64,000 nucleotides of DNA from Burkholderiales bacterium. Lineage in GTDB: Bacteria; Pseudomonadota; Gammaproteobacteria; Burkholderiales; JAHFRG01. Of the stretch, positions 5,971 through 56,439 are shown in pieces. The position numbers and the translations under genes are program-made. The notes under the pieces are model-generated. The model worked only from the letters and a program-made list of their open reading frames with translations, searched no databases and had not been told where the DNA came from. Each line of letters opens with the position of its first letter. Position 1 is the stretch's first letter. Where the stretch lies: the NCBI GenBank assembly GCA_036522275.1, contig DATDGC010000020.1:17995-81994 (forward strand). The letters run 5' to 3'.

Positions 5971-6060
5971 CGTGAAAGGTGAAAAGTGAAGAGTGAAATG
6001 CCCAACACCAGAGAGACTCTGCTCTCTCCCGTTTCACGTTTCACGTTTCACGCTTCACCC
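5971..6060. repeat. tandem-repeat-armed hairpin H1
   Basis: Left arm (GTGAAAN)x4 at 5971..6000. Right arm (TTTCACG)x3-4 at 6031..6060. A small GAGAG/CTCTC hairpin sits in the centre. Confidence 0.8.
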
Positions 6061-6663
6061 TTAATCAAACGCTTAGGCTTGGTTGAGTACCTGCCTACTT
6101 GGCGCGCGATGCAGGATTTCACTGCGCGGCGCAATGCCGATACCGAAGACGAACTCTGGCTTATCCAGCACCCGCCAGTTTACACCCTGGGCCTGAACGG
6201 AAAACCGGAACATTTGCCTCAAGATACCGCGATTCCCGTTATCAAAACCGACCGCGGCGGCCAGATCACCTACCACGGACCCGGTCAAATCATCGCTTAT
6301 CTGCTACTCGATATGCGGCGCTTAAACATCGGCGCGCGCGGGCTGGTTAAGCGCATGGAACAGTCAGTGATAGACTTGCTTGAAGGTTACGGTATAAGCG
6401 CACAAGCCCGTATTGATGCCCCGGGTGTGTATGTGAACGGCTCAAAAATCGCCGCATTGGGGTTGCGAATTAGACAAGGTTGCTGCTACCACGGCCTTGC
6501 GCTCAACGTGGACATGGATTTGCTGCCGTTTCGAGCGATCAATCCTTGCGGCCATCCGGGCATGCAAGTCACGCAGCTGCGCGATTTGGGCGTTGCTGAT
6601 TCGCTGGCCCGGTTAAGCGAAAAATTATCTGAAAAGCTTACTTATCACCTGCGCAAAAAATGA
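5998..6663 (+). CDS. lipB: octanoyltransferase LipB
   Basis: [25 protein letters not shown] and LNV..DL.PF..INPCG. The only in-frame starts (GTG 5986, ATG 5998) lie inside hairpin H1. Confidence 0.9.
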
Positions 6664-7616
6664 ACCCCGCATCCGAAAATCTCAGGCAAAAAGGCGCAGC
6701 CAAGACTGCGCGCATTCCAATCAAGATTGTGCCGCTGCAGAAACTTAAAAAGCCCGATTGGATCCGCGTAAGGTCTGCAAACAGCGCGCGCTTCTACGAT
6801 ATCAAACGCATACTGCGCGAACATAAGCTGCACACAGTCTGCGAAGAAGCCTCATGCCCCAATATCGGCGAATGTTTCGGGAAAGGCACGGCGACGTTCA
6901 TGATTCTGGGAGACCTGTGCACCCGGCGTTGCCCATTCTGCGATGTAGCCCACGGCAAGCCGCTTCCGCCAGATGCTGACGAGCCAGTGAATCTCGCCAA
7001 GACGATAGCCGCGCTGAATCTCCATTACGTGGTGATCACCAGCGTGGACCGTGATGATTTGCGCGACGGCGGCGCCCGGCATTTCGCCGATTGCATCCGT
7101 TGTGTGCACGAATTATCGCCGCAAACCCGCATCGAAACGCTGGTGCCTGATTTTCGCGGGCGGCTGGAGATTGCCCTGGACATTTTAAGCACCTGCCCGC
7201 CGGATGTGATGAACCACAACTTGGAAACCGTGCCGCGGCTATACAAGCAGGCACGTCCGGGCGCTGACTACCGGAATTCACTGAAACTGCTCAAGGACTT
7301 CAAATCACGCTTCCCGAACATTCCGACTAAATCGGGTTTGATGCTGGGTTTGGGTGAAACCGACGAGGAAATCCTGGAAGTCATGCGCGATCTGCGCGAT
7401 CACCATGTGGACATGCTCACACTCGGGCAGTACCTTCAGCCGAGCAGCTATCATCTGCCGGTGCTGCGCTACGCGGAGCCTGCGGTGTTCAAAAGCCTTG
7501 AAGAACAAGCCAGGGAAATGGGTTTCCTGCACGCCGCGTGCGGGCCGCTGGTGCGCTCAAGCTACCACGCCGATGAACAAGCTCATGAGGCAGGACTGGT
7601 CAGCGGCGCAATCTAA
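6660..7616 (+). CDS. lipA: lipoyl synthase LipA
   Basis: [12 protein letters not shown] plus the radical [15 protein letters not shown] overlap with lipB. Confidence 0.95.
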
Positions 7617-7651
7617 CCGAATAACCTTTCGCTGCTTGAAGGACCCCGCTG

Positions 7652-8176
7652 TCAAGCACCCACAGGCGCGGCGAGCTTCTCTTCTATCAGCCGGTGCAAC
7701 TGGGCGAAATCCGGCTCGCCGAGGATACGCTTGATGATGTTGCCGCGCTTGTCGATGATAAAAGTGGTTGGAGTGAGCTGCACGTCGCCAAAGGCCTGTG
7801 CGAGGCTTCCCCGCACATCCAGCGCCACTTTGAAGGGCAGTGCATTTTTCTCAGTGTAATTCAATACGTAATTGGGGGGATCGTAGCTCATGGCGACGGC
7901 GATGGTCTCGAGACCTTGCGTCTGATATTTACGGTAGGTGTCTATCATCCGCGGCATTTCGTGGATGCAGCCGACGCAACTGGTGGCCCAGAAATTCACA
8001 AGCACCACCTTGCCGCGCAGGCTCCCCATAGAGATTTTCTCGCCTTTCAGCGAAGTAAACGTCACCTGCGGCGCCGGTGACTCCTGCGACACCGCTTGCG
8101 CAAACAGCAGCGCCAGCAGCGCGGCCAGCGCCAGCAAAATCAGAAAGCGTTTGTTTTTAACCATGGGTTCAAGCAA
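7652..8176 (-). CDS. TlpA/ResA-family periplasmic thiol:disulfide oxidoreductase
   Basis: Signal/anchor sequence, then a thioredoxin fold with WATSCVGC (CxxC). Confidence 0.75.
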   Translation of the reverse strand: MLEPMVKNKRFLILLALAALLALLFAQAVSQESPAPQVTFTSLKGEKISMGSLRGKVVLVNFWATSCVGCIHEMPRMIDTYRKYQTQGLETIAVAMSYDPPNYVLNYTEKNALPFKVALDVRGSLAQAFGDVQLTPTTFIIDKRGNIIKRILGEPDFAQLHRLIEEKLAAPVGA

Positions 8177-8235
8177 GCCGCAGAAACGGGAAAATTAGTG
8201 TGTGCTTTTTTGCCGTGTTTGTCATCCTGTTCCTT

Positions 8236-8632
8236 AGAGCCTCTAACATAATGAAACGAATAATGCGACGGCGTCGGTTTCGGAGGCAGGCCGCGAAGCG
8301 AGCCGCGCCGTTGGGTCACTCCCCAATAAGCGGCGAGCGACAAAGGCATGCGCCGAAAGCGCCCCGGACTCGGTCTCGCGCAGCGTGGTGCGGGAAGGGG
8401 CGCAAGCTGCCGCAAACATATCGTTAAACGGGGCGCTCATGCTGCCGCTCCCGCACCCCAAGCTTCGCTTACCGTGTCGCGGCAACCGCCGTCCCCAAGG
8501 GTTGCGGCCAAAAAGCGCGCCTGCTTCGTTGCTCGGCTTACTCGATGTCCCGGCATCGAGTTGCGCCACGCGTCCCGCATTCATCGCTTTTTGGCCAGCT
8601 ACGCAAATCCGTTTCATTATGTTAGAGGCTCT
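8236..8632. repeat. dispersed non-coding element, copy A (full length)
   Basis: 8236..8258 (AGAGCCTCTAACATAATGAAACG) is the exact reverse complement of 8610..8632. The interior is homologous to 48050..48450, and in part to 43766..44034 and 23432..23562. Confidence 0.85.
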
Positions 8633-11433
8633 TAATGTGCTTTTTCCCAGTTCGGTCCCGCCCCAACATCTACAACCAGCGGTACTTCCAATTTGGCAAC
8701 ACCACACATGAGCTTCGGCAACTCGGATTTCAGCAACCCGAGTTCGTCATCCGGCACTTCCAGCACCAGCTCGTCGTGCACTTGCATGATGAGCCTGGCT
8801 TTGAGCTGCTTTTGCCTAAGCCACTCGTGCACCGCAATCATGGCAAGTTTTATAAGATCCGCAGCGGTGCCCTGCATCGGCGCGTTGATTGCCGCGCGCT
8901 CCGCACCCTGCCGGTGCGCGCCGTTGGAGCTGTAGATGTCGGGAAGCCAAAGCCTTCTGCCAAGCACGGTTTCCACAAAGCCCTGTTGCTTGGCTAGTTC
9001 GCGGGTGCGCTGCATGTAGTCCGCAACCCCCGTGTAACGGGCGAAATAACGTTCCATGTAAAGCTGTGCCGCTGCTCGCTCGATGCCCAACTGGCTGGCC
9101 AAACCGAACGCAGACATGCCGTAAATCAGGCCGAAATTAATCACCTTGGCATAGCGCCGCTGCTCCGCCCCGACTTCCTTCGGAGGAATGCCGAAAATCT
9201 CTGCTGCGGTGGCGCGGTGGATGTCCTCGCCTGCGGCAAAGGCTTTGAGCAGGTTCGCGTCCCGCGAAATATGCGCCATGATGCGAAGTTCAATTTGCGA
9301 ATAGTCTGCTGATACAATCTGGTGGCCGGCGGAAGCAATAAACGCTTCGCGGATTCTGCGTCCTTCCTGGGAGCGCACCGGAATGTTCTGCAGGTTGGGA
9401 TCGTTGCTGGCAAGTCTGCCTGTTACCGCAACCGCCTGAGCATAATTGGTGTGCACCCGCCCGGTGGCCGGGTCCACCATGCGCGGTAGCTTATCCGTGT
9501 ACGTGGACTTAAGTTTGGCCAGGCCGCGGTAATCAAGGATGAGCTTGGGCAAAGGGTAATCCAGTGCGAGCTCCTGCAACACATCTTCATCGGTGGATGG
9601 CGCGCCGCCGGGCGTTTTCTTCACCACCGGAAGTTTGTGGCGCTCGAACAGGATTTCCTGTATCTGCTTCGGCGAATTGAGATTGAACGGTTGTTCCGCA
9701 AGCCGGTACACCTCGGTTTCAAGTTCCAGCATTCTGTTTCCCAATTCGCGGCTTTGTTCCCCCAGCAGTTTCACATCCAGCAGCACGCCGTTTCTCTCCA
9801 TGTCAAAGAGCACTTCGAGGAGCGGCATCTCTATACGCCGGTAAATCATCTCCAGTTTGGGGTCGGCAGCAATTTGCGGATATAGTGCCTGATGCAGTTG
9901 TAGCGTGATGTCGGCGTCTTCAGCCGCATATTCGGTGGCTTTGTCCACTGCCACCTGCTCAAAACTGATCCGCCCGGCGCCTTTCCCGGTCACTTCATCA
10001 TAAGTGATGGTTTTGACGCCGAGATGACGCTCCGCCAGATTGTCCATGTCATGCGCCCTGTGGCTTTCCAGCACATAGGATTGCAGCAAGGTGTCATGCG
10101 CAATGCCGGAAAGCACGACGTCGTGATTGGCGAAGATGTGCTTGTCATACTTGAGGTTCTGTCCAAGTTTGGGTTTTCCCGGATCTTCCAGCCAGGGCTT
10201 GAGCCGCTGTATAACCTGATGGAAATCAAGCTGAGCCGGCGCGCCGGAATAACGGTGCGCAAGCGGAATATAAGCGGCATGGTGCACTTCCACCGAGAAT
10301 GATATCCCGACCAACTTGTCCTGCAGCGGATCCAGCCCAGTGGTTTCGGTATCCACCGCCACCAATTGCGCCGCGTGAATACGCTTCAGCCATTTTTCCA
10401 GTTGTGCTTCGGTCAGAACGGTTTCGTAATTCTTTTGTGAGGGGTGAGGAGTAAGTGATGAGTGGCTTGGGCTCACCACTTGGTTTATGGCTTGATCTGA
10501 CTCCTTACTTCTTACGCCTAACCCCTTACTCTCTTTAAGCCAGTTTTTGAATTCAAATCGTTCGAACAGTTCGGCAAGTTTTGCGCTGTCGGGAGATTGC
10601 GGCACGAGATCATCCAGGCTTACCGGCAAAGCCACATCGCATTTGACGGTAAGCAGCTGGCGCGCTTGAGGAAGCCAGTCGAGAGATTTGCGCAAATTCT
10701 CCCCGACGACGCCGGGTATATCATTTGCATGCACCATCAGGTTGTCGAGCGTTTGATACTGTGTCAGCAGCTTCACCGCGGTTTTCGGCCCGACCTTGTC
10801 CACGCCAGGCACGTTATCCACACTGTCGCCAATCAGCGTCAGATACTCCAAGATACGTGAAGGCCCCACGCCGAATTTGGCAAGTACCCCCTGCTCATCA
10901 AGTTTTTCATTGCTCATGGTGTTGATGAGCGTAACCTGCGGGTTAACCAATTGCGCAAGGTCCTTGTCCCCGGTGGAAACGATGCTCTTTATCCCCTCGC
11001 GTGCGGCAAGCACGGTAAGCGTACCGATGACGTCGTCCGCCTCCACGCCTTCAATGATGAGCAGTGGCCAACCCAGGGCACGGATGCATTCGTGGAGTGG
11101 TTCAATCTGGACTGCTAAATCTTCCGGCATCGCAGGCCGGTTGGCCTTGTATTCGGGATACCACTCTTCGCGGAAGGTTTTGCCTTTTGCGTCAAACACG
11201 CAAGCGCTATAATCGGCCTTGTACTCGCTGTGCAAACGGCGCAGCATGTTGAGCACACCGTAAATCGCGCTCGTGGGCTCGCCCCGTCGGTTGCGCAAAT
11301 CGGGCAGTGCGTGAAATGCGCGGTAAAGGTACGAGGAGCCGTCAACCAAGAGCAACGTTTTGCTTCCGCTTGACGGTGCCTCGTGTTCCCTGTTGGAGTT
11401 TCCGGCAGCGTTTTTCATTTCGCCCTGCCGCAC
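8632..11433 (-). CDS. polA: DNA polymerase I
   Basis: 933 aa: 5' nuclease (LLLVDGSSYLYRAF), 3'-5' exonuclease (VAVDTETTGL) and pol domain (DYSQIELR, QVHDELV). Confidence 0.97.
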   Translation of the reverse strand: MRQGEMKNAAGNSNREHEAPSSGSKTLLLVDGSSYLYRAFHALPDLRNRRGEPTSAIYGVLNMLRRLHSEYKADYSACVFDAKGKTFREEWYPEYKANRPAMPEDLAVQIEPLHECIRALGWPLLIIEGVEADDVIGTLTVLAAREGIKSIVSTGDKDLAQLVNPQVTLINTMSNEKLDEQGVLAKFGVGPSRILEYLTLIGDSVDNVPGVDKVGPKTAVKLLTQYQTLDNLMVHANDIPGVVGENLRKSLDWLPQARQLLTVKCDVALPVSLDDLVPQSPDSAKLAELFERFEFKNWLKESKGLGVRSKESDQAINQVVSPSHSSLTPHPSQKNYETVLTEAQLEKWLKRIHAAQLVAVDTETTGLDPLQDKLVGISFSVEVHHAAYIPLAHRYSGAPAQLDFHQVIQRLKPWLEDPGKPKLGQNLKYDKHIFANHDVVLSGIAHDTLLQSYVLESHRAHDMDNLAERHLGVKTITYDEVTGKGAGRISFEQVAVDKATEYAAEDADITLQLHQALYPQIAADPKLEMIYRRIEMPLLEVLFDMERNGVLLDVKLLGEQSRELGNRMLELETEVYRLAEQPFNLNSPKQIQEILFERHKLPVVKKTPGGAPSTDEDVLQELALDYPLPKLILDYRGLAKLKSTYTDKLPRMVDPATGRVHTNYAQAVAVTGRLASNDPNLQNIPVRSQEGRRIREAFIASAGHQIVSADYSQIELRIMAHISRDANLLKAFAAGEDIHRATAAEIFGIPPKEVGAEQRRYAKVINFGLIYGMSAFGLASQLGIERAAAQLYMERYFARYTGVADYMQRTRELAKQQGFVETVLGRRLWLPDIYSSNGAHRQGAERAAINAPMQGTAADLIKLAMIAVHEWLRQKQLKARLIMQVHDELVLEVPDDELGLLKSELPKLMCGVAKLEVPLVVDVGAGPNWEKAH
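10437..10533. repeat. tandem-repeat-armed hairpin H2, inside polA
   Basis: Left arm GTGAGGGGTGAGGAGTAAGTGATGAGTGG. Right arm CTCCTTACTTCTTACGCCTAACCCCTTACTCTC. The arms are complementary allowing G-U pairs. Confidence 0.75.
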
Positions 11434-11469
11434 AAGTTAAACTTTAAATTCATTAAACGGATTTCCAAA

Positions 11470-12198
11470 ATGAACCTTCCAGAAAAGCTGCAACAATCAA
11501 TTACCCCGGAATTTCTTGAGAAAACGTGGTCAGCGCGCGAATCCTGGCGCGTATTTGCGATTATGGCAGAATTTGTGGAGGCCACGGAACGCTTGAGTGC
11601 GATACGCCCCGCAGTAAGCATTTTCGGCAGCTCGCGCTCTTCGCCAGATCACCCCTTTTACAAGCTCGCTGAAGCCATCGCACGGCAACTGTCGGATGCG
11701 GGTTTCAGCGTCATTTCCGGCGGCGGGCCCGGCATCATGGAAGCCGCCAACAAAGGGGCATATTTCGGCACAAGCCCAAGCATTGGCCTGAATATCCAGC
11801 TGCCGCACGAGCAACACAGCAACGCCTACCAGGATATCAGCCAGACATTCCGGCATTTCTTTGCGCGCAAGGTGATGTTCGTGAAGTTCGCCAGCGCTTA
11901 CGTGGTGCTGCCCGGCGGCTTCGGCACGCTGGATGAACTGATGGAAGCGCTCACCCTGGTACAGACCGGCAAAACGCGCAAAATGCCCATCATCCTGGTG
12001 CACGAACCATTCTGGCGCGGAATGCTGGACTGGTTCAAGCAGGTGTTGGTTACGGAAAACATGATGGACGCCGAGGATCTGCATCTCATCCAGGTCATCA
12101 ACGAACCCAAAGCAGTGGTGGACGCGATATTCAATCATTACGAGAAGCGCGGTTTCGAGCCTTCGGCGCAAGAGCGGGAAATCCAACTTAACCTGTAA
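11470..12198 (+). CDS. LOG/TIGR00730-family protein (putative nucleotide 5'-monophosphate nucleosidase)
   Basis: GGGPGIMEA and PGGFGTLDEL motifs. ATG at 11470; the longer ORF overlaps the polA start. Confidence 0.8.
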   Translation: MNLPEKLQQSITPEFLEKTWSARESWRVFAIMAEFVEATERLSAIRPAVSIFGSSRSSPDHPFYKLAEAIARQLSDAGFSVISGGGPGIMEAANKGAYFGTSPSIGLNIQLPHEQHSNAYQDISQTFRHFFARKVMFVKFASAYVVLPGGFGTLDELMEALTLVQTGKTRKMPIILVHEPFWRGMLDWFKQVLVTENMMDAEDLHLIQVINEPKAVVDAIFNHYEKRGFEPSAQEREIQLNL

Positions 12199-12252
12199 AT
12201 GCCTGTCTGATGATAAACTAATATATTTCGCTTCCGGGCAAACCACTCAACA

Positions 12253-12585
12253 ATGATGCGCCTCATTGCCGCCACCATGTTTTGTCTTGCGCTGTCTGCG
12301 TTTGCACAGAGCAACCAGCCGAAGGATTTGCAGCCTCTGCCCGAAGCACCACCACCGCAGCCGCAGATTGACCCGTCACTGGAACCGGAAGTGACCATCA
12401 TAAAGCGCGGCAAGGAAACCGTAGAAGAATACCGCGTGCACGGTAAGCTCTACATGATCAAGGTCACACCGTCCCACGGCGTTCCTTATTACCTGCTTGA
12501 TGAAAACGGCACCGGCAAGTTCTCCCGCCGCGACGATTTGGATAATCCGGTCAAGGTACCGATGTGGGTGATATTTTCGTTCTAA
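12253..12585 (+). CDS. DUF2782-like secreted protein
   Basis: Signal peptide, then EEYRVHGKLYMIKVTPSHGVPYYLLD. Confidence 0.6.
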   Translation: MMRLIAATMFCLALSAFAQSNQPKDLQPLPEAPPPQPQIDPSLEPEVTIIKRGKETVEEYRVHGKLYMIKVTPSHGVPYYLLDENGTGKFSRRDDLDNPVKVPMWVIFSF

Positions 12586-12661
12586 AGCGTCAGCTTCCAG
12601 CCTTCAGCAAAACCTAATCTCGACACAACGCCTGCAGCTGGACGCTGACAACTAATAAACC

Positions 12662-13606
12662 ATGTCCGTATTCACTACCGTCACTCCGGAACAGCTCTCG
12701 GAGTGGCTGAAAAACTACTCGCTCGGCACACTCACTGGCTTGCGCGGCATCGCTTCCGGCATCGAGAACACCAATTACTTCTTGGATACCACTCACGGCC
12801 GTTACGTGCTCACGCTGTTCGAGAAACTGCGTGCAGAAGAGCTGCCGTTTTACCTCAACCTGATGTCGCACTTGGCAAGCCACGGTATTCCCTGCCCCGA
12901 CCCGATTGCTAATCTGCAAAACAACTTCTTAAGTGAACTCAACGGCAGGCCGGCGTGCATCGTCACCTGTCTCGATGGAGTGGATTTAAAGACCCCCACA
13001 TCCGATCATTGTGCTGAAGTGGGTGAGTTGCTTGCCAACCTGCATCTTGCGGGTCAAACCTATCCAGTGAAAATGGAAAATCCACGCGGCACGCGCTGGT
13101 GGACTGCCACCGCCCCGCAACTCATGCCTTTTCTGTCGCAAATTGAAGCGGAACTGCTCAAGGAGGAACTGCACTTCCAGTCGCTTTACCGTTACCAGGA
13201 TTTGCCGCGCGGTGTGATTCACGCCGACTTGTTCCGCGACAATGTGCTGTTCCACAACGATACCATCAGTGGGGTCATAGATTTCTATTTCGCCTGCAAT
13301 GATGTATTGCTCTACGACGTGGCTATCACCGTCAATGATTGGTGCGTGACTGCGAGCTATGAACTGGATGCCGGGCGCACCCAGGCACTGCTTTCGGCCT
13401 ATCATGCCAGCCGCCCCTTCACCGCAAACGAGCGTGAGGCCTGGCCGGTGATGCTGCGCGCCGGCGCGCTTCGCTTCTGGATCTCGCGTTTATATGATTT
13501 TCACTTGCCGCGGCCAGGGGAGCTCACTCATGCCAAGGACCCCAAACATTTCATGAACATCCTCAAGCAACACGCCAGCGGAAAATCCGGCGTAGTTTGG
13601 CCGTGA
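12662..13606 (+). CDS. thrB: homoserine kinase (ThrB, APH-fold type)
   Basis: N-terminus MSVFT.V....L..WL..Y.LG.L....[10 protein letters not shown] and the catalytic region [13 protein letters not shown]. Confidence 0.85.
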
Positions 13607-14408: not shown

Positions 14409-16592
14409 TCAGGCCGGCGTCAGCTTGGCGTATTCCAGCGCCAGCCATTTCACCCCGGCTTTGTGAAAATTGACCTGCACCCTGGCATCCGCCCCGCGTC
14501 CTTCGGCGTTGACGATCACCCCCGCACCAAATTTCGGGTGCAGCACATTCTGGCCGATACGCCACGGCAGTGAAGGTTGAGCGTTGAGTGTTGAGTGTTG
14601 AGCGTGGGGGGCAGACGCACCCGTGTCTTGAACGCTGAATGCTGAACCCTTAACTCTCAACCCGGAGTTGATCCGCTTCATCAGATTTTCGGGAATTTCC
14701 TGTACAAAACGAGAAGCGATGTTATAGCGCGTCTGCCCGTGCAGCATGCGGTTTTGTGAAAAGCTTAAGTAAAGCCTGCGCCGGGCGCGGGTGAGCGCCA
14801 CGTACATCAATCTTCGTTCTTCTTCCAGTCCGCCGTCTTCAACCAGGCTTTGTTCGTGCGGAAACAAACCCTCTTCCAAGCCGCTGACGAACACTGTGTG
14901 AAATTCCAAACCTTTTGCCGAATGCACGGTCATCAGCTGCAATGCATCCACGCCTTCGCCTGCCTGGCGCTCGCCGGCCTCCAATGCAGCGTGCGTCAAA
15001 AAATCCACCAACATGTTTTGTGCACTCCCTTCGGCGTTTTCATTAATGAAGCTGGCCACAGCATTGATGAGTTCGCCCAAGTTTTCCAGACGATCGGCGC
15101 CGTCTTTCTGCCCCTGGTAATGCTGTTTGAGACCACTGTGTTCGATGACGTGCTCGATTATTTCTTGCAGCGTCAGGCCTGCGCTGGCTTCGCGCAGCGA
15201 CTTGATCAAGGCAACAAAGCCTTCGATGCCTTTTTTCTGCGCTGTTTCCCTTCCCTGTCCTTTATTCTGCGTTCTGCGCAGCGCCGCCTGCCATAAGCTG
15301 CTGTGGTGCTCCAGGGTATCTACCTGCAATTGCTCGAGGCTGCGGTTGCCGATCCCGCGCAGCGGGAAATTGATCACTCGCAGCAGTGCGCCATCGTCAT
15401 CCGGATTGGCAAAGAGGCGAAGATAGGCGAGTGCGTGCTTGATTTCCTGGCGCTCAAAAAAGCGCAGACCGCCGTACACTCGATACGGAATCGCGGCGGA
15501 AAACAGCGCGTGCTCCAATACCCTGGACTGGGCATTGGAACGGTAGAGCACCGCAATGTCACAAAATTTGACACCTTCCGCTGCAAGTGCTTTCACTTCT
15601 TCAACGATAAATCCCGCTTCTTCGAGGTCATTGGCGGCTTCATAGAGGCGCAATGGCTCGCCATGCCCTTCGGCAGTCCATAGGTTTTTGCCGAACCGCG
15701 CCTTGTTGTGGCGGATCAGCGCATTCGCGGCATCCAGAATGTTGCCGTGCGAGCGGTAGTTCTGCTCAAGCTTGATGACCTTGGTTGCGCCGAAGTCCTG
15801 CTCAAAACTTAGCATGTTTCCGGCGCTCGCGCCGCGGAAAGCGTAAATAGACTGGTCATCATCACCCACTGCGAACACCGCATTGTTTTGGCCCGCAAGC
15901 AGTTTTAGCCACAGGTATTGCAAACGGCTGGTGTCCTGGAGTTCGTCCACCAGAATATGCTGGAAGCGGCCGCGGTAATGCTCGCGCAGGATTTCATTGC
16001 GTGACAGTAGTTCGAATGAGCGCAGCAGCAGTTCAGCAAAATCCGTCACACCCTCGCTCTGGCACAACTCGTCATAGGCGGCGTAAAGCTCGTTAAGCTT
16101 GCGGGAAAAATCATCGAACGCTTCAACCTGCGTAGCGCGCAGACCCTGTTCTTTTGCGTCGTTGATAAAGTACTGCAGCTGTTTTGGCGGGTATTTCTCA
16201 TCGTCGACGTTAAGACTTTTCATGAGGCGCTTGATCAGTGCCAATTGATCTGCGCTATCCATGATTTGAAACAGTTGCGGCAAGCCGGCATCGCGGTAGT
16301 GCGCGCGCAGCAGGCGATTACATAACCCATGAAACGTGCCAACCCACATACCGTGGGTGTTAATCGGCAGTATCGCTGAAATGCGCGCGAGCATTTCCTT
16401 CGCCGCCTTGTTGGTGAAGGTTACCGCGAGGATGCCCATGGGACTGGCCTGTCCGGTCTGAATCAGCCAGGCAATGCGCGTGGTGAGCACGCGCGTCTTG
16501 CCGCTGCCCGCGCCGGCAAGAACCAGCGCAGATTGCCTAGGCAGGGTGACGGATTCGAGCTGCTGGGGATTTAACCCGGAAAGAATGGACAT
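14409..16592 (-). CDS. uvrD: DNA helicase II (UvrD/Rep family, SF1)
   Basis: LNPQQ, AGAGSGKTRVLT, DELQDTS, VGDDDQSIY.FRGA and MTVHSAKGLEF. Confidence 0.95.
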   Translation of the reverse strand: MSILSGLNPQQLESVTLPRQSALVLAGAGSGKTRVLTTRIAWLIQTGQASPMGILAVTFTNKAAKEMLARISAILPINTHGMWVGTFHGLCNRLLRAHYRDAGLPQLFQIMDSADQLALIKRLMKSLNVDDEKYPPKQLQYFINDAKEQGLRATQVEAFDDFSRKLNELYAAYDELCQSEGVTDFAELLLRSFELLSRNEILREHYRGRFQHILVDELQDTSRLQYLWLKLLAGQNNAVFAVGDDDQSIYAFRGASAGNMLSFEQDFGATKVIKLEQNYRSHGNILDAANALIRHNKARFGKNLWTAEGHGEPLRLYEAANDLEEAGFIVEEVKALAAEGVKFCDIAVLYRSNAQSRVLEHALFSAAIPYRVYGGLRFFERQEIKHALAYLRLFANPDDDGALLRVINFPLRGIGNRSLEQLQVDTLEHHSSLWQAALRRTQNKGQGRETAQKKGIEGFVALIKSLREASAGLTLQEIIEHVIEHSGLKQHYQGQKDGADRLENLGELINAVASFINENAEGSAQNMLVDFLTHAALEAGERQAGEGVDALQLMTVHSAKGLEFHTVFVSGLEEGLFPHEQSLVEDGGLEEERRLMYVALTRARRRLYLSFSQNRMLHGQTRYNIASRFVQEIPENLMKRINSGLRVKGSAFSVQDTGASAPHAQHSTLNAQPSLPWRIGQNVLHPKFGAGVIVNAEGRGADARVQVNFHKAGVKWLALEYAKLTPA
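14570..14663. repeat. tandem-repeat-armed hairpin H3, inside uvrD
   Basis: Left arm (GTTGAGY)x4-5 at 14570..14609. Right arm TTGAACGCTGAATGCTGAACCCTTAACTCTCAACCC at 14628..14663. Confidence 0.75.
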
Positions 16593-17719: not shown

Positions 17720-20350
<2,631 letters not shown>

Positions 20351-20353
20351 ATA

Positions 20354-20423
20354 GCGTAAGGAGTAAGGGGTGCGGGCATAAAGCATGGGTTTACACCTCA
20401 CTCCTAACTCCTCACCCTTTACC
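20354..20423. repeat. tandem-repeat-armed hairpin H4 (leuS-lptE spacer)
   Basis: Left arm GCGTAAGGAGTAAGGGGTG. Right arm CACCTCACTCCTAACTCCTCACCCTTTACC. Same GTRAGGRG motif as H2. Confidence 0.7.
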
Positions 20424-23245: not shown

Positions 23246-23570
23246 GCCGGGGGCAGCCCGGCTGCTGGTTACTTTTTCTTGCTTGGCCAAGAAAAAGTAA
23301 CCAAAAAGAAAGCCACCCCGGTTCCGCGCCCCTTCGACAAGCTCAGGGGTTCCCTGCGTTGCTCGCCAAACCGGGCGGCTGCGCAACTCAACCTCGGCCT
23401 TACGGCCTCGGGATTCGGACAGTGCTCGCCGGCGCCCCGGACTCGGACTCGCACAGCGTGGAGCGGGAAGGGGCGCAAGCTGCCGCAGGAGACACCGTGA
23501 AACGGGGCGCTATTGCTGCCGCTCCCGCACCTAAGAGCTTCGCTCACCGTGTCGCGGCAGCCCCCCGGCA
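23246..23570. repeat. dispersed non-coding element, copy B (composite: D-type module fused to the A/C-type core)
   Basis: 23246..23431 is homologous to the reverse complement of 48995..49217 and includes the perfect hairpin GGTTACTTTTTCTTG-CTTGGC-CAAGAAAAAGTAACC (23267..23302). 23432..23562 is homologous to the core at 8359..8490. Confidence 0.8.
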
Positions 23571-48813: not shown

Positions 48814-48934
48814 AGCTTTGATCCTCCTTACTAAATATCTTGACGTGATACTCCAAGTGATGATGGTAATCTTAAATCGGCTCTAATCCCATTATTTGCC
48901 TTACCCCTTCTGAGCCGCCAAGCGACGAAGTCAA

Positions 48935-49217
48935 ATCGGGGGCTGCCGCAATTATGTCCCCATCTGCGGCGCTGAGGTTTGGAAGGCAAGTTGGGGGATT
49001 CCGGCGAGCACTGTCTGAGCACGTGGCTGCAAAGCGGATCGTGCGAGTTGCGCAGCCGCCCAACTTGCCAACAAACCGAAGGAAGCCCTGAGCCAACGAA
49101 GGGCCGGCGCAGCGGGGCGGCTTTCTCTTTGGTTACTTTCGCTTGGCCGCGCAAGAGAAAGTAACCGGCTGTCGGGCCGCCCCCGACACAAACCACCAGC
49201 CGCCGGGCTGCCACCGG
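48935..49217. repeat. dispersed non-coding element, copy D (second module type)
   Basis: Homologous to the reverse complement of 23246..23431. Contains the hairpin GGTTACTTTCGCTTG-GCCGCG-CAAGAGAAAGTAACC (49131..49166). It abuts the metH stop codon. Confidence 0.75.
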
Positions 49218-52200
49218 CTAATTATCATATCCTAAGATCGGCGCGAGCCATTTTTCCGTCTCGGCCAGACTCATTCCTTTGCGGCGCGCATAGTCATCGG
49301 CCTGGTCCTTGCCGATTTTGCCTACTGCAAAATAGCCGGACTCAGGATGAGAGAAATAAAAGCCGCTCACGGCTGCGGCCGGCAGCATGGCGAAACTTTC
49401 GGTAAGCGTAATCCCGACTTCCGGCGCTTGCAACAGGTCAAATAACGCCCCTTTTTCGGTGTGGTCCGGGCATGCGGGATAGCCGGGCGCGGGGCGGATG
49501 CCGCGGTATTTCTCCGCAACCAGCGCTTCACTGTCCAGGTTCTCATCCGGCGCATAACCCCAGAACTCGCGCCGCACGCGCAGGTGCATGTGCTCAGCAA
49601 AAGATTCGGCAAGCCGGTCGGCGAGCGCTTTCAGCATGATGGCGTTGTAATCATCGTGCTTCTCTTCATACGCTATGACTCGCGCATCGATGCCGATGCC
49701 CGCGGTAACCGCAAAGGCGCCGATGTAATCCTTCACTCCGGAATCCCTGGGTGCGATGAAATCGGCGAGGCACTGGTTGAGATTGCCTTGCGGCTTGACA
49801 TTCTGCTGGCGCAGGTTGTGAAAAGTCATCGCCACTTTGGCGCGCGATTCGTCGGCATAAATCTCGATGTCGTCGCTGTTCACCAAGTTGGCGGGGAACA
49901 AGCCAATCACCGCATTGGCTTTGAGCCATTTTTCCTCGATGATGAGCTTCAGCATCGCTTGCGCGTCCTGGAAAAGATTGCGCGCGGCTTCGCCAACGAC
50001 TTCATCCTGCAAAATCGCCGGGTAGCGGCCCGAGAGTTCCCAGGTCTGGAAAAACGGCGTCCAGTCTATGCAGGACACAAGCTCCCGCAAAGGATAGTCC
50101 TTAAACGCTTTTAAACCGATGAAGCCTGGTTTTGGCGGCACGTAATGCTTCCATTCTGTTTTCAGGCCGTTTTTTCTCGTCTCAACGAGCTTGTGCAGCG
50201 GCTGGCCTTTCTTTTCCCTGTGTTGCACGCGCACCTTTTCATATTCCTGCTTGATGCCTTCAATGTAGCCGTTGCGCTGCTCATCGGAGAGCAGCTTGCT
50301 GCACACGCCCACGCTGCGCGAAGCATCCGGCACCCAGATGGTGGCCCCCTGGTAGCCGGGTTCTATTTTCACCGCGGTATGCACCCGCGAAGTGGTTGCC
50401 CCGCCGATCAACAGCGGGATGGTGAAGCCTTCGCGCTGCATCTCCTTCGCTACATGTACCATTTCTTCCAGCGAAGGTGTAATCAATCCTGACAGCCCGA
50501 TGATATCGGCCTGCTCGTCGCGCGCGGTCTGCAGGATTTTGGCGCAAGGCGCCATCACCCCGAGATTAATCACCTCGTAGTTATTACATTGGAGCACCAC
50601 GGAGACGATGTTCTTGCCGATGTCATGCACATCGCCCTTAACCGTGGCAATCACAATCTTGCCTTTGGGCTTTTGCGCTTCGCCTGATTTCCGCTTTTCC
50701 GCTTCGATGTAAGGCACGAGATGGGCCACCGCGCGCTTCATCACCCGCGCCGATTTCACGACTTGCGGCAAAAACATTTTGCCCGATCCGAACAAATCGC
50801 CCACCACATTCATACCGTCCATCAGCGGCCCTTCTATCACCTGGATCGGGCGTTGGTATTTACTGCGCGCTTCCTCGGTGTCCTCGATAATGTAAGCGTC
50901 AATGCCTTTCACCAGCGCGTGGGTGAGCCGCTCCCCGACGCTGCCTTTGCGCCACGACAAATCTTCAATGGCGGTCTTCGCCTGTCCTTCCACGGTCTCG
51001 GCGAATCGCACCAGGCGCTCCGCTGCATCCGGACGGCGGTTCAACACAATATCCTCGACCCGCTCCAGCAGATCTTTGGGAATTTCCTCGTACACGCCAA
51101 GTTGTCCGGCGTTGACGATGCCCATTGTCATGCCCGCCTTGACCGCGTGATACAGAAACACGGTATGTATCGCCTCGCGCACCGCGTCATTGCCGCGAAA
51201 GGAAAACGAGACGTTGGACACGCCGCCGCTCACCTTGGCGTGCGGCAGCGCGCGTTTGATGGCGCGCGTTGCTTCGAGGTAGTCCACGCCGTAATTGCTG
51301 TGCTCTTCAATCCCGGTGGCAATCGCGAAAATGTTGGGGTCAAAAATGATGTCTTCGGGCGCGAAGCCGGCCTCTTTCAACAGCAGATGATACGAGCGCG
51401 TGCAGATTTCGATTTTGCGCGCGAGCGTATCCGCCTGGCCTTTCTCATCGAAAGCCATCACCACCACGGCGGCGCCGTAGCGCCGCGCGAGACGCGCGTG
51501 CTTGATGAATTCCGCTTCGCCTTCTTTCATGCTGATGGAATTCACCACACACCTGCCCTGCACGCATTTCAGGCCCGCTTCAATCGCTTCCCATTTCGAG
51601 GAATCAATCATCACCGGCTCCCGCGAGATGTCGGGCTCGGAGGCAATGAGGTTCAAAAACTTCGCCATCGCCTGTTTGGAATCAAGCATCGCCTCGTCCA
51701 TATTCACGTCGATCATCTGCGCGCCGTTTACCACCTGTTGCCGCGCCACGCTCAGCGCTTCCCCATAGTTGCCATTAAGAATCAGCCGCGCGAAGGCTTT
51801 GGAGCCGGTGACATTGGTGCGCTCGCCGATGTTGACGAACAGCGAATCATCGCCGATGTTGAGCGGTTCCAGTCCTGACAGGCGCAGTATTTTCTTGATA
51901 TTCGGCACCACGCGCGGTGGAATGCCCTGCACCGCGGCATGAATCGCTTTGATATGCGCGGGAGTGGTGCCGCAGCAGCCGCCGACGATGTTGATAAAGC
52001 CGCTTTGCGCGAATTCCTTCAGGAAACCGGCGGTATCTTCCGGTCCTTCCGGAAAACCCGTAGGAGAAAGCGGATCGGGAAGACCGGCATTAGGATAGGC
52101 GCAGACATATGTGTCGGCAATATTCGACAATTCTTCGATATACGGGCGCATCAGTTTTGCGCCGAGAGCGCAGTTAAGCCCGATGGAAAGCGGCTGCGCG

Positions 52201-52955
52201 TGACGCACCGAGTTCCAGAAGGCCTCGGTGGTTTGCCCGGTAAGCGTGCGTCCGGATTGGTCGGTGATGGTGCCTGAAATCATCACCGGCACGCGGCACC
52301 GACCCGCCTGCGGGCCGATGACTTTGTTGCCTGCTTCGGCGGCTTCCAGCTCTTCGAAAACCGTCTCAACAGCGAAAATCGCCGCTTTGGCGTTGAGGGT
52401 GTCGAAAATGGTTTCAAGCAAGAGAATGTCCACACCGCCGTCGAGCAGGCCGCGCACGGCTTCGCTATAAGCCGCGACCAGAGCGTCAAACGTGATGTTG
52501 CGGAAACCCGGATCGTTGACATCCGGTGAAATCGAGGCGGTCTTGTTGGTGGGTCCCAAAGCGCCTGCGACAAAGCGCGGCTGGTCCGGTGCTTTGGCGG
52601 TGAATTCATCCGCCAATTCGCGTGCGAGTTTGGCCGCGCTCAAATTCAACTCGTAAACCAGATGCTCCAGGTGGTAATCCGCCTGCGACGGCGCATTGGA
52701 ATTGAAGGTGTTGGTCTCGATGATGTCCGCCCCCGCTTGCAGGTACGCGCAATGAATATCGCGGACAATCCGCGGCTGGGTGAGCGTGAGCAAATCGTTG
52801 TTGCCTTTGAGGTCGTGCGGAAAATCGGCAAAGCGGCTCCCCCGATAATCGCTTTCTCCGAGCTTGTGGCTCTGGATCATCGTGCCCATGGCGCCATCCA
52901 GAATCAGGATGCGCTGTCTAAGCAATTGTTCGAGTAGTGAAGCGCGCGTCTGCAT
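49218..52955 (-). CDS. metH: cobalamin-dependent methionine synthase
   Basis: 1245 aa covering the Hcy-binding, pterin-binding, B12-binding ([11 protein letters not shown]) and AdoMet activation domains. Confidence 0.97.
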
Positions 52956-52971
52956 GATAAAATTCGTCGCA

Positions 52972-53011
52972 ATAAAAACAAAAAACCCGTGCTGCTTAAC
53001 GCGGACGGGTT
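52972..53011 (-). terminator. intrinsic terminator downstream of the VIT-family gene
   Basis: The minus strand reads AACCCGT-N14-ACGGGTT, followed by TTTTGTTTTTATT. Confidence 0.6.
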
Positions 53012-53121
53012 GTGTCTCGCTTTAGCAGTATTTGTTAAGCGCCCGCAAGCTGAAATCAAATCGGCGCAGTTAGGGCAACAAATTACCTTGTAGTCTCGGC
53101 CTTGTCAACTTTCATTAAGTT

Positions 53122-54177
53122 TCAGGCAAGACTGACGCCCAGCAATTTGCCGATCAGGTAGGTTGCGCCTCCGGCTGCGGCGCCAATGACCAGCATGCGC
53201 GAACCGCTGAAAAGCGCGTGGCGGCCGGTGAAGAGGCTCAATACCGCGCCGACGATGAAGAGCGAGACCGCGCTGAGCACAATGGAAAGGAAAAGACTTT
53301 TGTCGCCGGCGGCAAACAGAAAAGGCAAAACCGGAATGGCGCTGCCGAAAGCAAAAGAAAAGAAAGAAGACAGCGCAGCGCCGCGAGGCGAGCCGAGATC
53401 TTCCGGATTGAGCCCCAGTTCTTCGCGTGCCAGCGTATCCAGCGCTTTCTCCGGATCGGTCAAAACGCCTTCCGCGAGGCGTTGCGCTTCGCTTTTCGGT
53501 AAGCCGCGCGCCTCGTAAATCAGCGCAAGTTCCGCCGCTTCCTCCTCAGGATATTGCTCGAGCTCTTCGCGCTCAAGCCCGATTTGGTACTCATACATTT
53601 CGCGCTGTGAGCGTACCGAAACATATTCCCCGGCCGCCATGGAAAACGCTCCGGCAAGCAGCCCTGCAATACCTGAAAGCAGGACCACGGCATTATCCGC
53701 GGTCGCACCCGCCACCCCCAAAATCAGGCTGGCGTTCGACACCAGGCCGTCATTCACGCCGAACACCGCGGCACGCAGATTTCCGCCGCTTCCCACCCCG
53801 CGATGGCGGCGGCCGACTTCTTCGAGGCTCAGCGGCATCGCATGGCCGGGTTCATCCTTGGTGTAAAGCGACATGCCTCGCACTTTCATCGCCGCAAGCG
53901 CCGGGCGCATGCGGCGCGGACCTAATAACTTCAGGAGAAAAGCGACCACCCGCGTACGCAGATCGGGCGTGTATCCTTGCGGGACGTTGACGTTATCGCC
54001 GCCGTCGCGGATTATTTGCGCCCAAATCAGCGCCTGCTTTTCGGCAGCGTCCGCAAGTTCCAGAAAAAGCGCCTGGCGAGAACTCCCCGCTTCAGCTGCG
54101 GCCACTAAACGATAAAGATGGGCGGAGCGCTTTTCCTCGCGCCAGTTTTCTACAACACCCGCGGCGTTCTTGGCCAT
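53122..54177 (-). CDS. VIT1/CCC1-family iron/manganese transporter with an N-terminal ferritin-like domain
   Basis: N-terminal helical EKRSAHLYR...EK.A..WA domain. C-terminal VIT body (FGVNDGLVSN, 5 TM helices). Confidence 0.8.
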   Translation of the reverse strand: MAKNAAGVVENWREEKRSAHLYRLVAAAEAGSSRQALFLELADAAEKQALIWAQIIRDGGDNVNVPQGYTPDLRTRVVAFLLKLLGPRRMRPALAAMKVRGMSLYTKDEPGHAMPLSLEEVGRRHRGVGSGGNLRAAVFGVNDGLVSNASLILGVAGATADNAVVLLSGIAGLLAGAFSMAAGEYVSVRSQREMYEYQIGLEREELEQYPEEEAAELALIYEARGLPKSEAQRLAEGVLTDPEKALDTLAREELGLNPEDLGSPRGAALSSFFSFAFGSAIPVLPFLFAAGDKSLFLSIVLSAVSLFIVGAVLSLFTGRHALFSGSRMLVIGAAAGGATYLIGKLLGVSLA

Positions 54178-54810
54178 TTATTGTCTCCATGACGTCAGGT
54201 TCACTTGGAGCCGACCGATAGGCGCGTTTTGCACGGGATAATCATCCACTATCCACCCAATCGTTGCATTTTTGTTCACTTTCAGAAGCGTCGCCTGATT
54301 GAGCAAAGCTGTCGTGGTATAAATAACCATAAATCTTTCACCGGCTGCGCGCGGGTTCATGGCTATTTCCATCTCCAGCCAGGCGTGATTCATGCTATTA
54401 CCCGAATTAATTGGAATCACAATACCGTTATCCACCTTTCGCGTGACATGATAGTCCGCATCGAGAAACATCACCACAGGACTGAATATGTACGGCTCTC
54501 CGGAGCGCTTTTCCTTGTCGACGAAATAACTGCTGACAATAACAAAATACGGTTTTGCTGCTACCGGCAGGCTGAAAGCCTTGAAATAGCTCTTGCCGCC
54601 ATCGAACAGAAAGGCGGTGCTGCTGCGGTCTATCGTGGCGCTTTCGGTTGCACCAAGCTTGAGCGGCTGGAAATAAAACTGCTCGTAGCTCGCGCAGCAC
54701 ACCGCCGCTGTTTCGAGATCGCTTTTGACCGGATCCACAGGCTTATCCGATGCACAGGAAGATACCAAGACACACGCGAATAGCAGGATAATGAGCATTG
54801 TTTTTTTCAT
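54178..54810 (-). CDS. lipoprotein, possibly MalM-family
   Basis: Lipobox LVSSCAS. Loose resemblance to MalM (CC.S...F.F..L; ..MVIYTT). The stop abuts the VIT start (TAAATG). Confidence 0.4.
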   Translation of the reverse strand: MKKTMLIILLFACVLVSSCASDKPVDPVKSDLETAAVCCASYEQFYFQPLKLGATESATIDRSSTAFLFDGGKSYFKAFSLPVAAKPYFVIVSSYFVDKEKRSGEPYIFSPVVMFLDADYHVTRKVDNGIVIPINSGNSMNHAWLEMEIAMNPRAAGERFMVIYTTTALLNQATLLKVNKNATIGWIVDDYPVQNAPIGRLQVNLTSWRQ

Positions 54811-54848
54811 AAGGCCAACTTTAGGGGGATATCAGGCTCGCAGTCAAA

Positions 54849-56354
54849 TCAACCCCCGGTGCGGTCGAAGAAACGCCGGTATTGCACGGCTTCCGCCACA
54901 TGAGTGGCAATGATATGCGGCGCTTCAGCCAAATCAGCGATACTGCGCGCGACTTTCAAAATCCGGTGATACGCGCGCGCGGAGAGGCTCAAGCGGCTGA
55001 TCGCTTGCTTCAGCAATTCCAGGCCTTGGGAATCGGGTATGCAAATGCGGTCGATTTCTTTGGTGGCAAGCTGTGCATTAGGCTTGCCCTGACGCGCCAG
55101 CTGCTGCTGATAGGCCGCTTCGATGCGCGCCTTGATGGCGCTGGAAGGCTCGCCGCTTGCATGCCGGGTCAGTTCTTCTTCAGGCACCGCGGGGACTTCG
55201 ATTTGAATGTCTATGCGATCGAGCAGCGGCCCGGAAATCTTGCTTCGGTAACGCGCCACCTGATCAGGCGTGCATCTGCACTTGCCGCTGAAATGCCCCA
55301 GATACCCGCACGGGCAGGGATTCATCGCTGCAATCAACTGGAACTGCGCCGGGAAATCCGCCTGGCGCGCGGCGCGCGAGATGGTGATGCGCCCCGATTC
55401 CAACGGCTCGCGCAGCACTTCCAATACTTTTCTATCGAACTCGGGCAGTTCATCGAGGAACAACACACCGTGCAGCGCCAGCGAAATCTCGCCGGGCCGC
55501 GGATTGCCGCCACCGCCCACCAGTGCAACCGCTGAAGCGGTGTGATGCGGGGCGCGGTAGGGCCGTTTTTTCCAATTCTCGATCTTAAAACCGCCGCTCG
55601 CCAGCGACTGGATCGATGCCGATTCAAGCGCCTGCTCTTCGGTCATCTCCGGCAAAACACCCGGAAAACGCGCAGCCAGCATGCTTTTCCCCGTGCCGGG
55701 CGGCCCCACCATCAGCACGCTATGACCTCCGGCTGCCGCGATTTCCAGCGCGCGCTTGGCGTGCGCCTGGCCTTTTACTTCCTGCATATCGTCATAGCTC
55801 GGTGCTGCAGCCTGAAGTTTTTCCACATGGCGCTTAAGCGGCTCGTGCCCATTGAAATGCGCGCATACCTGCAGGAGCGAAGTCGCCGGATAGACTTCAG
55901 CCTCTTCAACCAGCGCAGCTTCGGCAGCGTTCTCCAACGGCAGGATAAATGCACGGCCAGAGCGGGAGGCGCAATAGGTCATCGCCAATGCGCCGCGTAT
56001 CGGGCGCAGCTCGCCGGTCAATGCGAGTTCTCCAGCGAGTTCATAATCCGCGAGCTTGCCGGAAGGAATTTGATGGGATGCGGCAAGTATTCCCAAGGCA
56101 ATCGGCAAATCGAAACGCCCGCTCTCCTTGGGAAGATCCGCCGGCGCCAAATTTACCGTAATGCGCCTTGCAGGAAACTGGAAGCGGCAATTCAACAGCG
56201 CCGCACGCACGCGGTCTTTGCTTTCCTTCACTTCGGCTTCTGGCAGGCCGACGATGGTAAAGCTTGGCAAACCTGAGCCAAGATGCACTTCCACGGTAAC
56301 TAGCGGCGCTTCCATACCAGCAAGCGCACGGCTGTAGAGGACGGCAAGGCTCAT
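54849..56354 (-). CDS. comM: YifB/ComM-family Mg-chelatase-like AAA+ ATPase
   Basis: MSLAV.YSRA..G..A..V.VEVHL..GLP.F.IVGL, GPPGTGKSMLA and GVLFLDELPEF. Confidence 0.9.
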   Translation of the reverse strand: MSLAVLYSRALAGMEAPLVTVEVHLGSGLPSFTIVGLPEAEVKESKDRVRAALLNCRFQFPARRITVNLAPADLPKESGRFDLPIALGILAASHQIPSGKLADYELAGELALTGELRPIRGALAMTYCASRSGRAFILPLENAAEAALVEEAEVYPATSLLQVCAHFNGHEPLKRHVEKLQAAAPSYDDMQEVKGQAHAKRALEIAAAGGHSVLMVGPPGTGKSMLAARFPGVLPEMTEEQALESASIQSLASGGFKIENWKKRPYRAPHHTASAVALVGGGGNPRPGEISLALHGVLFLDELPEFDRKVLEVLREPLESGRITISRAARQADFPAQFQLIAAMNPCPCGYLGHFSGKCRCTPDQVARYRSKISGPLLDRIDIQIEVPAVPEEELTRHASGEPSSAIKARIEAAYQQQLARQGKPNAQLATKEIDRICIPDSQGLELLKQAISRLSLSARAYHRILKVARSIADLAEAPHIIATHVAEAVQYRRFFDRTGG

Positions 56355-56363
56355 GAATTAAAT

Positions 56364-56439
56364 GGACAGGATTAACAGGATTAACAAGAAAACCTTAATT
56401 TTATCCTGTGAATCCTGAAACAATCCTGTTAGTCCTGTC
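56364..56439. repeat. tandem-repeat-armed hairpin H5 (ubiK-comM spacer)
   Basis: Left arm GGACAGGATTAACAGGATTAACAAG. Right arm ATCCTGTGAATCCTGAAACAATCCTGTTAGTCCTGTC. The outer 18 nt pair at 17/18 positions. Confidence 0.8.

Follow-up and report, generated by a model that had tools for sequence, protein, structure and literature searches.

Seven-nucleotide units are over-represented among the long simple sequence repeats (SSRs) of prokaryotes, and in many genomes, those of Burkholderia included, they form the most abundant long-SSR class; the proposed cause is slippage of the polymerase, said to favour 7-nt units (Mrazek et al., 2007, as cited in PMC4692102 and PMC4679880). The closest described system is that of Xanthomonas campestris and X. 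axonopodis, in which GGGAATC heptamer arrays, typically of about 4 units, form 70-75 convergent pairs per genome, with the two arrays lying close together on opposite strands and in a G-first orientation (Rehm et al., 2015; PMC4692102). Approximately 90% of these arrays are intergenic, at a mean of 28 nt from the end of the upstream open reading frame (ORF), and 7-11% are intragenic. They show no leading or lagging strand preference, differ in length and sequence from one related species to another at a given locus, and have no known function (PMC4692102). Here, a 64,000-nt stretch of DNA from an uncultured betaproteobacterium (Burkholderiales; assembly GCA_036522275.1, contig DATDGC010000020.1, positions 17,995 to 81,994), referred to as the window, is described with respect to six hairpins, H1 to H6, whose arms are themselves tandem repeats. 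We read these hairpins, with a probability of roughly 60%, as convergent pairs of SSR arrays that change in place by unit-wise slippage and are kept only where they are tolerated.

The resemblance to the Xanthomonas pairs extends to several features. Heptamer arrays of at least two units per arm are present in H1-H4 and H6, with the 9-nt units of H5 fitting the architecture only; the arrays are convergent and G-first in H1-H5, with H6 not being G-first; the intergenic copies lie close to the upstream ORF end (H1, H4 and H6) or overlap it (H5), while H2 and H3 are intragenic (Table 1); and related genomes differ in the length and sequence of the arrays at a shared locus. Unlike in Xanthomonas, where a single G-quadruplex-capable unit is used genome-wide, each site in the window has a unit of its own, and most of these units are not capable of forming G-quadruplexes. 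The betaproteobacterial host, two copies translated in frame within linkers encoded by polA and uvrD, and the 9-nt member are further differences.

In cyanobacteria, hairpins made of 7-bp short tandemly repeated repetitive (STRR) sequences occur between hupS and hupL; they have no known function, and the roles proposed for them are transcript stabilisation and translational coupling (PMC2670836). As in the window, 7-bp tandem units fold there into a hairpin between genes of one operon. The STRR hairpins differ in belonging to another phylum and in drawing on a small genome-wide set of units; few paired arrays have been reported for the GGGGAYT set of Nostoc, and in-frame copies in housekeeping genes are not among the published descriptions that were compared. 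The unit sequences in the window presumably differ from those of the cyanobacterial repeats as well. The heptanucleotide SSR surveys concern direct arrays, with neither inverted pairing nor G-first order figuring in the accounts of those surveys drawn upon here.

Small palindromic repeats are also found at operon junctions in the form of Rickettsia palindromic elements (RPEs) and of the REP, BIME and REPIN families. Such families consist of dispersed copies of a conserved consensus, with REPINs being moved by RAYT transposases, and RPEs also occur in frame within protein genes without destroying them. H2 and H3 are similar to RPEs in being palindromes translated in frame within conserved proteins, but RPE copies follow a family consensus, whereas H2 and H3 differ in both units and centres. 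An assignment to REP, BIME or REPIN was rejected, as the six sites have no shared palindromic consensus and only their architecture in common. Miniature transposable elements with inverted repeats (MITEs) were likewise discarded, since filled and empty sites reveal neither a clean insertion nor a target-site duplication and the centres are unrelated. The Coxiella IVS of the literature is an unrelated direct repeat.

The original prediction had not recognised the hairpins as a named class. This is understandable. Related repeats have been described as convergent heptamer SSR pairs in Xanthomonas (PMC4692102) and, as far as the account in PMC2670836 extends, as STRR hairpins in cyanobacteria; a literature search for a named class beyond these two found nothing further. 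The sites in the window belong to an already reported, obscure and poorly understood class of repeats, to which they add a separate unit at each locus, a betaproteobacterial host, in-frame copies and a 9-nt member.

Architecture and position of the hairpins

The five hairpins originally predicted, H1-H5, were found at the coordinates claimed for them, and all were picked up by a multi-register inverted-repeat scan of the window (12-nt scanning windows, at least 10 matches, at least 3 diagonals). Their pairing registers are spaced by exactly 7 nt in H1-H4 and by 9-11 nt in H5. Using 40 dinucleotide-preserving shuffles of the window as random controls, clusters of three registers 7 nt apart numbered 3 in the window and 0.00 in the shuffles (n=40), and two-register period-7 clusters numbered 4 against a shuffle mean of 0.53. 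Folding z-scores, computed as DNA, were -4.9 for H1, -2.1 for H2, -2.4 for H3, -2.0 for H4 and -4.7 for H5. The arms of H1, H3 and H5 were also detected by Tandem Repeats Finder. Its period-7 arrays are confined to the hairpin sites, a GGCGCGC doublet of trivial kind being the single exception, so that no heptamer array in the window is unpaired. The prominence of the 7-nt period extends beyond the window: in 1.6 Mb of betaproteobacterial loci it was foremost among the periods that are not multiples of 3 (9 clusters, compared to 1-2 for periods 5, 8, 10 and 11), and a tolerant scan of 0.7 Mb of metagenome contigs, chosen by a scan for an array alone (GTGAAANGTGAAANGTGAAA), returned 59 period-7 hairpins against 0-14 at other periods. 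Together, the shuffle controls and the period comparisons rule out chance or low complexity as the cause.

All five sites follow one plan, in which a 5' arm of 3-5 tandem units is followed by a unique centre of 15-40 nt and by a 3' arm of complementary units. No core is common to them, the centres being unrelated and the units different, and none of the arms contains four G-tracts. These data uphold the prediction that the sites are one family in architecture, with arms of tandem repeats that pair in several registers around a unique centre and with units specific to each site. The predicted unit length of 6-9 nt can be narrowed to 7 nt in H1-H4, as the 8-mer suggested for H4 is not borne out (its unit being GTAAGGR), and to 9 nt in H5, and the unit said to be common to H2 and H4 is indeed shared, as the 7-nt GTRAGGR and not as the 8-nt GTRAGGRG. 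Comparison with relatives has in addition revealed a sixth, degenerate member, H6. The family had been put forward on the understanding that it would fall if relatives showed the segments to be ordinary conserved coding sequence; the concept holds.

Table 1. Coordinates (positions in the window), units, genetic setting and rates of change of the six hairpins. Identities are those of the hairpin and of the flanking gene in comparisons with relatives.
Site	Extent	Unit	5' arm	Centre	3' arm	Setting	Hairpin identity	Flanking gene identity
H1	5972..6058	GTGAAAN	5972-5999 (GTGAAAN x4)	6000-6030	6031-6058 (GTTTCAC-type x4)	Between ybeD/DUF493 (stop codon 5966-5968) and lipB; 3 nt past ybeD stop		
H2	10437..10533	GTRAGGR	10437-10464 (GTGAGGR/GTAAGTG)		10501-10533 (CYTTACN)	In polA, - strand	0.65 (window vs L090)	0.80 (window vs L090)
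H6	12588..12654	NNTCAGC	12588-12608 (NNTCAGC units)		12634-12654 (GCTGANN)	Fills DUF2782/APH spacer; 2 nt past stop, 6 nt before start	0.70-0.71	0.85-0.89
H3	14574..14663	GTTGAGY	14574-14608 (GTTGAGY x4-5)		14629-14663	In uvrD, - strand	0.69-0.73	0.86-0.92
H4	20356..20423	GTRAGGR	20356-20376 (GTAAGGR x2, then GTGCGGG)		20397-20423 (CCTCAC/CCTAAC units)	5 nt past leuS stop (20348-20350); ends 17 nt before lptE start (ATG 20440)	0.85	0.90
H5	56361..56443	ACAGGATTA (9 nt)	56364-56386		56404-56439 (irregular 9-11 nt spacing)	Overlaps ubiK-like BMFP stop (- strand, 56429-56431) by 15 nt; ends 6 nt before comM start (56354)		

The gene assignments at the five original sites agree with Pfam (DUF493/ybeD-lipB, polA, uvrD, leuS-lptE and BMFP(ubiK)-comM). 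The placing of H2 and H3 in polA and uvrD was correct as to location and incomplete as a description, as both hairpins are translated in frame. In PolA, the 5'-nuclease domains end at aa 278 and the 3'-5' exonuclease domain begins at aa 331, with the Pfam gap at aa 279-330 corresponding to the H2 linker. In UvrD, the UvrD_C domain ends at aa 613 and a Tudor domain begins at aa 679, with the gap at aa 614-678 corresponding to the H3 linker.

The remaining four hairpins, H1, H4, H5 and H6, lie between genes of the same direction and take up almost all of the short spacer there. The distance from stop codon to hairpin is 2-8 nt in the window and in other taxa, a hairpin at this distance from the stop of a long ORF being also present at L002, L008, L017, L058, L112, L134, L143 and L166, and the downstream start often lies 5-17 nt past the hairpin, both in the window and at the junctions from other taxa. 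The centre of H1 holds a small stem of its own (AGAGAG/CTCTCT). The lipB frame is open over 5986-6663, from a GTG at 5986 inside the H1 5' arm and through the hairpin; the ATG at 5998 is not found in the relative L090, a TTG near 6080 is an alternative start, and the Pfam domain begins only from residue 41. The true lipB start, and with it the translation of part of H1, thus has several candidate positions, and the hairpin may overlap it.

No Rfam match was detected in the window, and a scan for consensus intrinsic terminators flagged none of the hairpin sites. Rho-independent terminators were rejected as an identity, considering the centres of 15-40 nt and the lack of a T-run downstream on the sense strand; a T-run follows only H5, on the strand antisense to its genes.

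Gain, loss and replacement among relatives

By PolA, the nearest named taxa among the matches listed are Nitrosospira and Sulfuricella, at about 72% identity; for the UvrD of the window, a look-up of the exact sequence found no record. Syntenic DNA was compared from relatives with PolA identities of 81-98% or ComM identities of 85-93%. The original prediction had called for a comparison of orthologous genes in related strains, and this has revealed both presence/absence and length polymorphism at the same junctions. The copies change in length by whole units, are gained and lost in place, are restricted to operon junctions and interdomain linkers and, where translated, maintain the reading frame.

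The clearest length change is seen in H6, where a 14-nt indel, exactly 2 units in one arm, separates the window from L214, a 95.7% identical strain, and is the sole indel of at least 6 nt in 8.8 kb between the two; H6 is better kept in L081 (8753-8831). H1 has 4+4 units in the window and in L090 and 5+1 in L089, is a relic in L081 and has no counterpart in L084, where the ybeD/lipB junction is a 14-nt spacer. H4 has one additional 7-nt unit in L081 and is likewise missing from L084, in which leuS and lptE are 2 nt apart; the spacers of the intergenic copies are 2-14 nt long in that relative. H5 is missing in L211 and L213 at 93% comM identity. At the same ubiK/comM junction, L212 (85% ComM identity) carries a direct array of four 8-nt units (GAGTGAAC) at 9925-10000, with no inverted partner, and judging from these alignments tandem arrays would seem to arise at this junction as at a hot spot. 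Filled and empty sites are distinguished by diffuse sequence change, with no clean insertion and no target-site duplication.

In one of the coding copies, the hairpin has been replaced by another at a fixed position. The polA linker holds a GTRAGGR...CYTTAC hairpin in the window, L081 and L090, and a relic 5' GTAAGGA array but a different hairpin, GTTCAGR...CTSAACN, in L087-L089, with a degenerate GTTCAGG version in L084. A GTTSAGN...CTCAACN hairpin occupies one and the same position in the uvrD linker of the window and of L081, L088 and L089. The reading frame is preserved in all orthologues of H2 and H3, and where the H3 unit is read in the TGA frame, C replaces G (GTTCAG). Phase-variable contingency SSRs are near-perfect tracts, typically in surface or restriction-modification genes, that turn a gene on or off as units are gained or lost. 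Over 4.3 units, the H3 arm at 14576-14605 of the + strand, which is 3' on the - strand, has a purity of 91%, and a 7-nt slip in it would frameshift uvrD before the Tudor domain; no frameshifted uvrD allele was found in the five genomes examined, in which the frame is intact and the product is 726-728 aa long. The period-7 hairpin was rejected as a general feature of the PolA linker in Betaproteobacteria, as among 62 loci only the clade of the window is period-7-specific, with GC-rich PolA linkers scoring at every period.

Most hairpin copies change faster than the genes that flank them, with identities of 0.65-0.89 compared to 0.80-0.93 (Table 1). Heptamer hairpins have also been detected at other junctions, in metagenome-assembled genomes (MAGs) of Gallionella and of other Burkholderiales. 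A hairpin of 8-nt units follows an AhpC-family gene in L089 (11865-11959), and a GTTGAGR/CTCAACA hairpin, from the unit family of the uvrD copy, lies between ptsI and the HPr gene in L212 (1885-1941). Among the metagenome contigs (L091-L210), those with one GTGAAAN array often hold several heptamer hairpins of other units, and in L207 (1769-1953) a GTTATCA.../...TGATAAC heptamer hairpin is nested in the loop of a GTGAAAC/GTTTCAC hairpin. The window also contains two copies (23267-23302 and 49131-49166) of a 36-nt palindrome, GGTTACTTTnnCTTG-N6-CAAGnnAAAGTAACC, that is unrelated to the hairpins and of which none is expected in 100 shuffles; it may represent a small family of repeats in its own right, or an operator or terminator that the two places share.

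Handedness and competing explanations

The original prediction had noted the G-rich arm at the lower coordinate whichever strand the host gene occupied, and took this to point to the chromosome, by way of replication direction or strand, as the source of the polarity. The observation is accurate for H1-H5, five of the five sites listed, and is the point in favour of that proposal; H6, in the same window, is not G-first. The observation carries no information on replichore or transcribed strand: A-loop-rc(A), when reverse-complemented, gives A-rc(loop)-rc(A), so that a hairpin whose 5' arm is G-rich is G-first whichever strand is read. The numbers agree, with the excess of G over C in the 5' arm (+ / - strand) being +10/+5 for H1, +15/+14 for H2, +15/+7 for H3, +11/+14 for H4 and +3/+4 for H5, and negative in the 3' arm on both strands in all five. 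The GC skew of the window shows no switch that could matter, the folding asymmetry described below follows gene orientation and not chromosome strand, and the same handedness recurs on unrelated contigs of arbitrary orientation. A chromosomal origin of the polarity was accordingly rejected, its probability being close to nil.

What remains is a strand-independent handedness, G-first over C-first, which is widespread. Among 49 classifiable hairpins in the 0.7 Mb of metagenome contigs, 47 are G-first and 2 C-first. Hairpins with GTGAAAN-type units contribute 38 G-first against 1, and those with other units on the same contigs, which were unselected for unit or handedness, contribute 9 against 1. 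In a strict test based on arrays with a nearby complementary array, all 13 distinct hairpins were G-first. H6 and, at L008 in a MAG of Gallionella, a hairpin of 9-mers do not follow this handedness.

A second asymmetry concerns RNA folding. At all six sites, the antisense RNA folds more stably than the sense RNA, by 2-3 kcal/mol for H1, H4 and H5 and by 6-16 kcal/mol for H6, H2 and H3, and in four uvrD orthologues the sense z-scores range from 0 to -2.1 compared to -2.1 to -3.5 for antisense. RNA-level selection for structure on the sense strand was rejected, as the better folding of the antisense RNA is the opposite of what a sense element predicts. Tentatively, the asymmetry in these six sites is suggestive of selection that weakens structure in the sense mRNA, above all in the coding copies.

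Under the reading favoured here, each site would be an SSR array and its reverse complement around a unique centre of 15-40 nt, with a 7-nt unit at five sites and a 9-nt unit at one; either strand, and RNA from either, can therefore fold into a long multi-register stem. The sites would not be copies of one mobile sequence, but would grow, shrink and change in place through unit-wise replication slippage, which we infer to be the origin of the arrays, and the complementarity of the arms would probably be kept by intrastrand template switching within the palindrome. Such pairs would be retained only at places that can take up about 70-100 extra nt without damage. One such place would be the handful of untranslated bases separating operon genes that are closely packed and probably coupled in translation, 2-8 nt past the stop; another would be disordered interdomain linkers, with total length a multiple of 3 and stop-reading units altered. 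By holding its flanks adjacent in the RNA, the hairpin may explain why paired arrays survive over single ones at junctions. The G-first order would be a property of the class and not of the chromosome, probably reflecting a filter or bias tied to 5'-to-3' synthesis; speculatively, an arm rich in C and poor in G would, if it were made first, be left without a pairing partner and load Rho, and G-first hairpins would thus be favoured.

A number of observations weigh against this reading, above all at H1. Between the window and L090, 92 of 97 nt of H1 are identical and the 3' arm is unchanged, in genomes whose ybeD, lipA and polA are only 79-81% identical and in which the third positions of synonymous ybeD codons agree at 43 of 76. 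H1 is the best-conserved 60-nt stretch of the 2.8-kb L090 alignment (0.92-0.97, compared to 0.42-0.58 in other spacers), and an in-frame lipB GTG lies inside its 5' arm in both genomes. This degree of conservation argues for function and not for mere tolerance. In H3, 0 differences from L214 occur over about 95 nt where about 4 would be expected, and some copies, H1 included, have come under constraint. Slippage alone accounts neither for the origin of the complementary arm nor for the G-first bias, and no clear mirrored variant units, of the kind that arm-to-arm templating would leave, were found between the arms of H2. Unit families also recur at unlinked loci (GTRAGGR in H2 and H4; GTTSAGN in uvrD, in polA of L087-L089 and at the L212 ptsI/HPr junction), which is not predicted by independent slippage from random seeds. 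Pure slippage leaves equally unaccounted for the position of unpaired G-rich arrays: in the metagenome loci L091-L210, unpaired GTGAAAN arrays start 0-9 nt past a sense-strand stop in 9 cases, whereas in the C-rich orientation no unpaired array starts closer than 18 nt to a stop. This count was restricted to ORFs of at least 120 aa and to stops outside the array, those inside being left out because GTGAAAN carries TGA in all frames.

The main rival explanation takes the hairpins to be functional cis-acting RNA stem-loops at operon junctions, placed after the upstream stop codon and serving in stop-start coupling, in the masking or exposure of the start, in protection from 3' exonucleases or as RNase III sites. 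Their position in the window and at the eight other loci, the short distance to the downstream start, the stop-proximal placing of the unpaired arrays and the conservation of H1 well above nearby synonymous sites and other spacers all agree with this, and like roles are proposed for the cyanobacterial STRR hairpins in the account of PMC2670836. As an explanation for the hairpins in general it is nonetheless doubtful, since H1, H4 or H5 are missing at the same junctions in close relatives, most copies outpace their flanking genes in change, the sense RNA is the one that folds worse at every site, two copies lie within genes, a setting in which termination or processing would do harm, and neither an Rfam match nor a resemblance to intrinsic terminators was found. 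A functional RNA role (coupling, stabilisation, processing) overlaps with the slippage reading and does not exclude it, and for H1 it is probably true. A dedicated, sequence-independent process, such as a polymerase or template switch in 7-nt steps or a novel mobile system, that makes G-first hairpins across many phyla is a less probable alternative still.

Other explanations fare worse. Miniature mobile elements, in the form of MITE-, REP- or RPE-like palindromes that insert and then decay, would fit the variable presence among relatives, the recurrence of a few unit families at unlinked loci, the frequent occurrence of several hairpins on contigs that have one, and the resemblance of the in-frame copies to RPEs. 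They are very unlikely here, given the lack of a consensus, of terminal inverted repeats beyond the SSR, of a core and of a visible target-site duplication, the diffuse differences between filled and empty sites, the variation by whole units within one arm, and the exchange of one unit family for another within polA, where the position stays fixed. Heptad arrays, whether direct or inverted, are bound by the omega repressor. The strict 7-nt period would suit binding sites for a protein reading 7-bp or 7-nt repeats, of the ribbon-helix-helix type that binds heptad arrays on DNA or of the cold-shock type, with one heptamer per domain, on RNA. Binding of one CspB protein per heptamer is discussed in PMC4679880. 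The units, on the other hand, vary by site within one genome and change at a fixed site among relatives, so that no sequence-specific binder fits, and no linked candidate gene is present in the window, which leaves this explanation with only a slight chance of being correct.

Significance of the paired heptamer arrays

In many bacteria, no long simple repeat is more over-represented than the heptamer. The sites described here indicate that paired, hairpin-forming heptamers exist outside Xanthomonas and the cyanobacteria, with a unit of their own at each locus, and that such a hairpin can persist, in translated form, within the linkers of two DNA-repair enzymes that are essential, even as its sequence is turned over. 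H1, being nearly identical between lineages with a gene identity of about 80%, is a concrete candidate for a functional copy. If a dedicated process were at work, it would favour the first bases past stop codons and occasionally plant translated segments in the PolA and UvrD linkers, and it would be a source both of new RNA structures at operon junctions and of disordered protein segments that are new; in that case, the Tudor domain of UvrD or the Klenow part of PolA could be lost reversibly through slippage in the copies concerned. The handedness of 47 to 2 constrains the mechanism, tying it to 5'-to-3' synthesis or to the nascent RNA and not to the replichore. Two leads emerge from this analysis, namely the G-first handedness as a general feature and the hairpin copies translated within PolA and UvrD.

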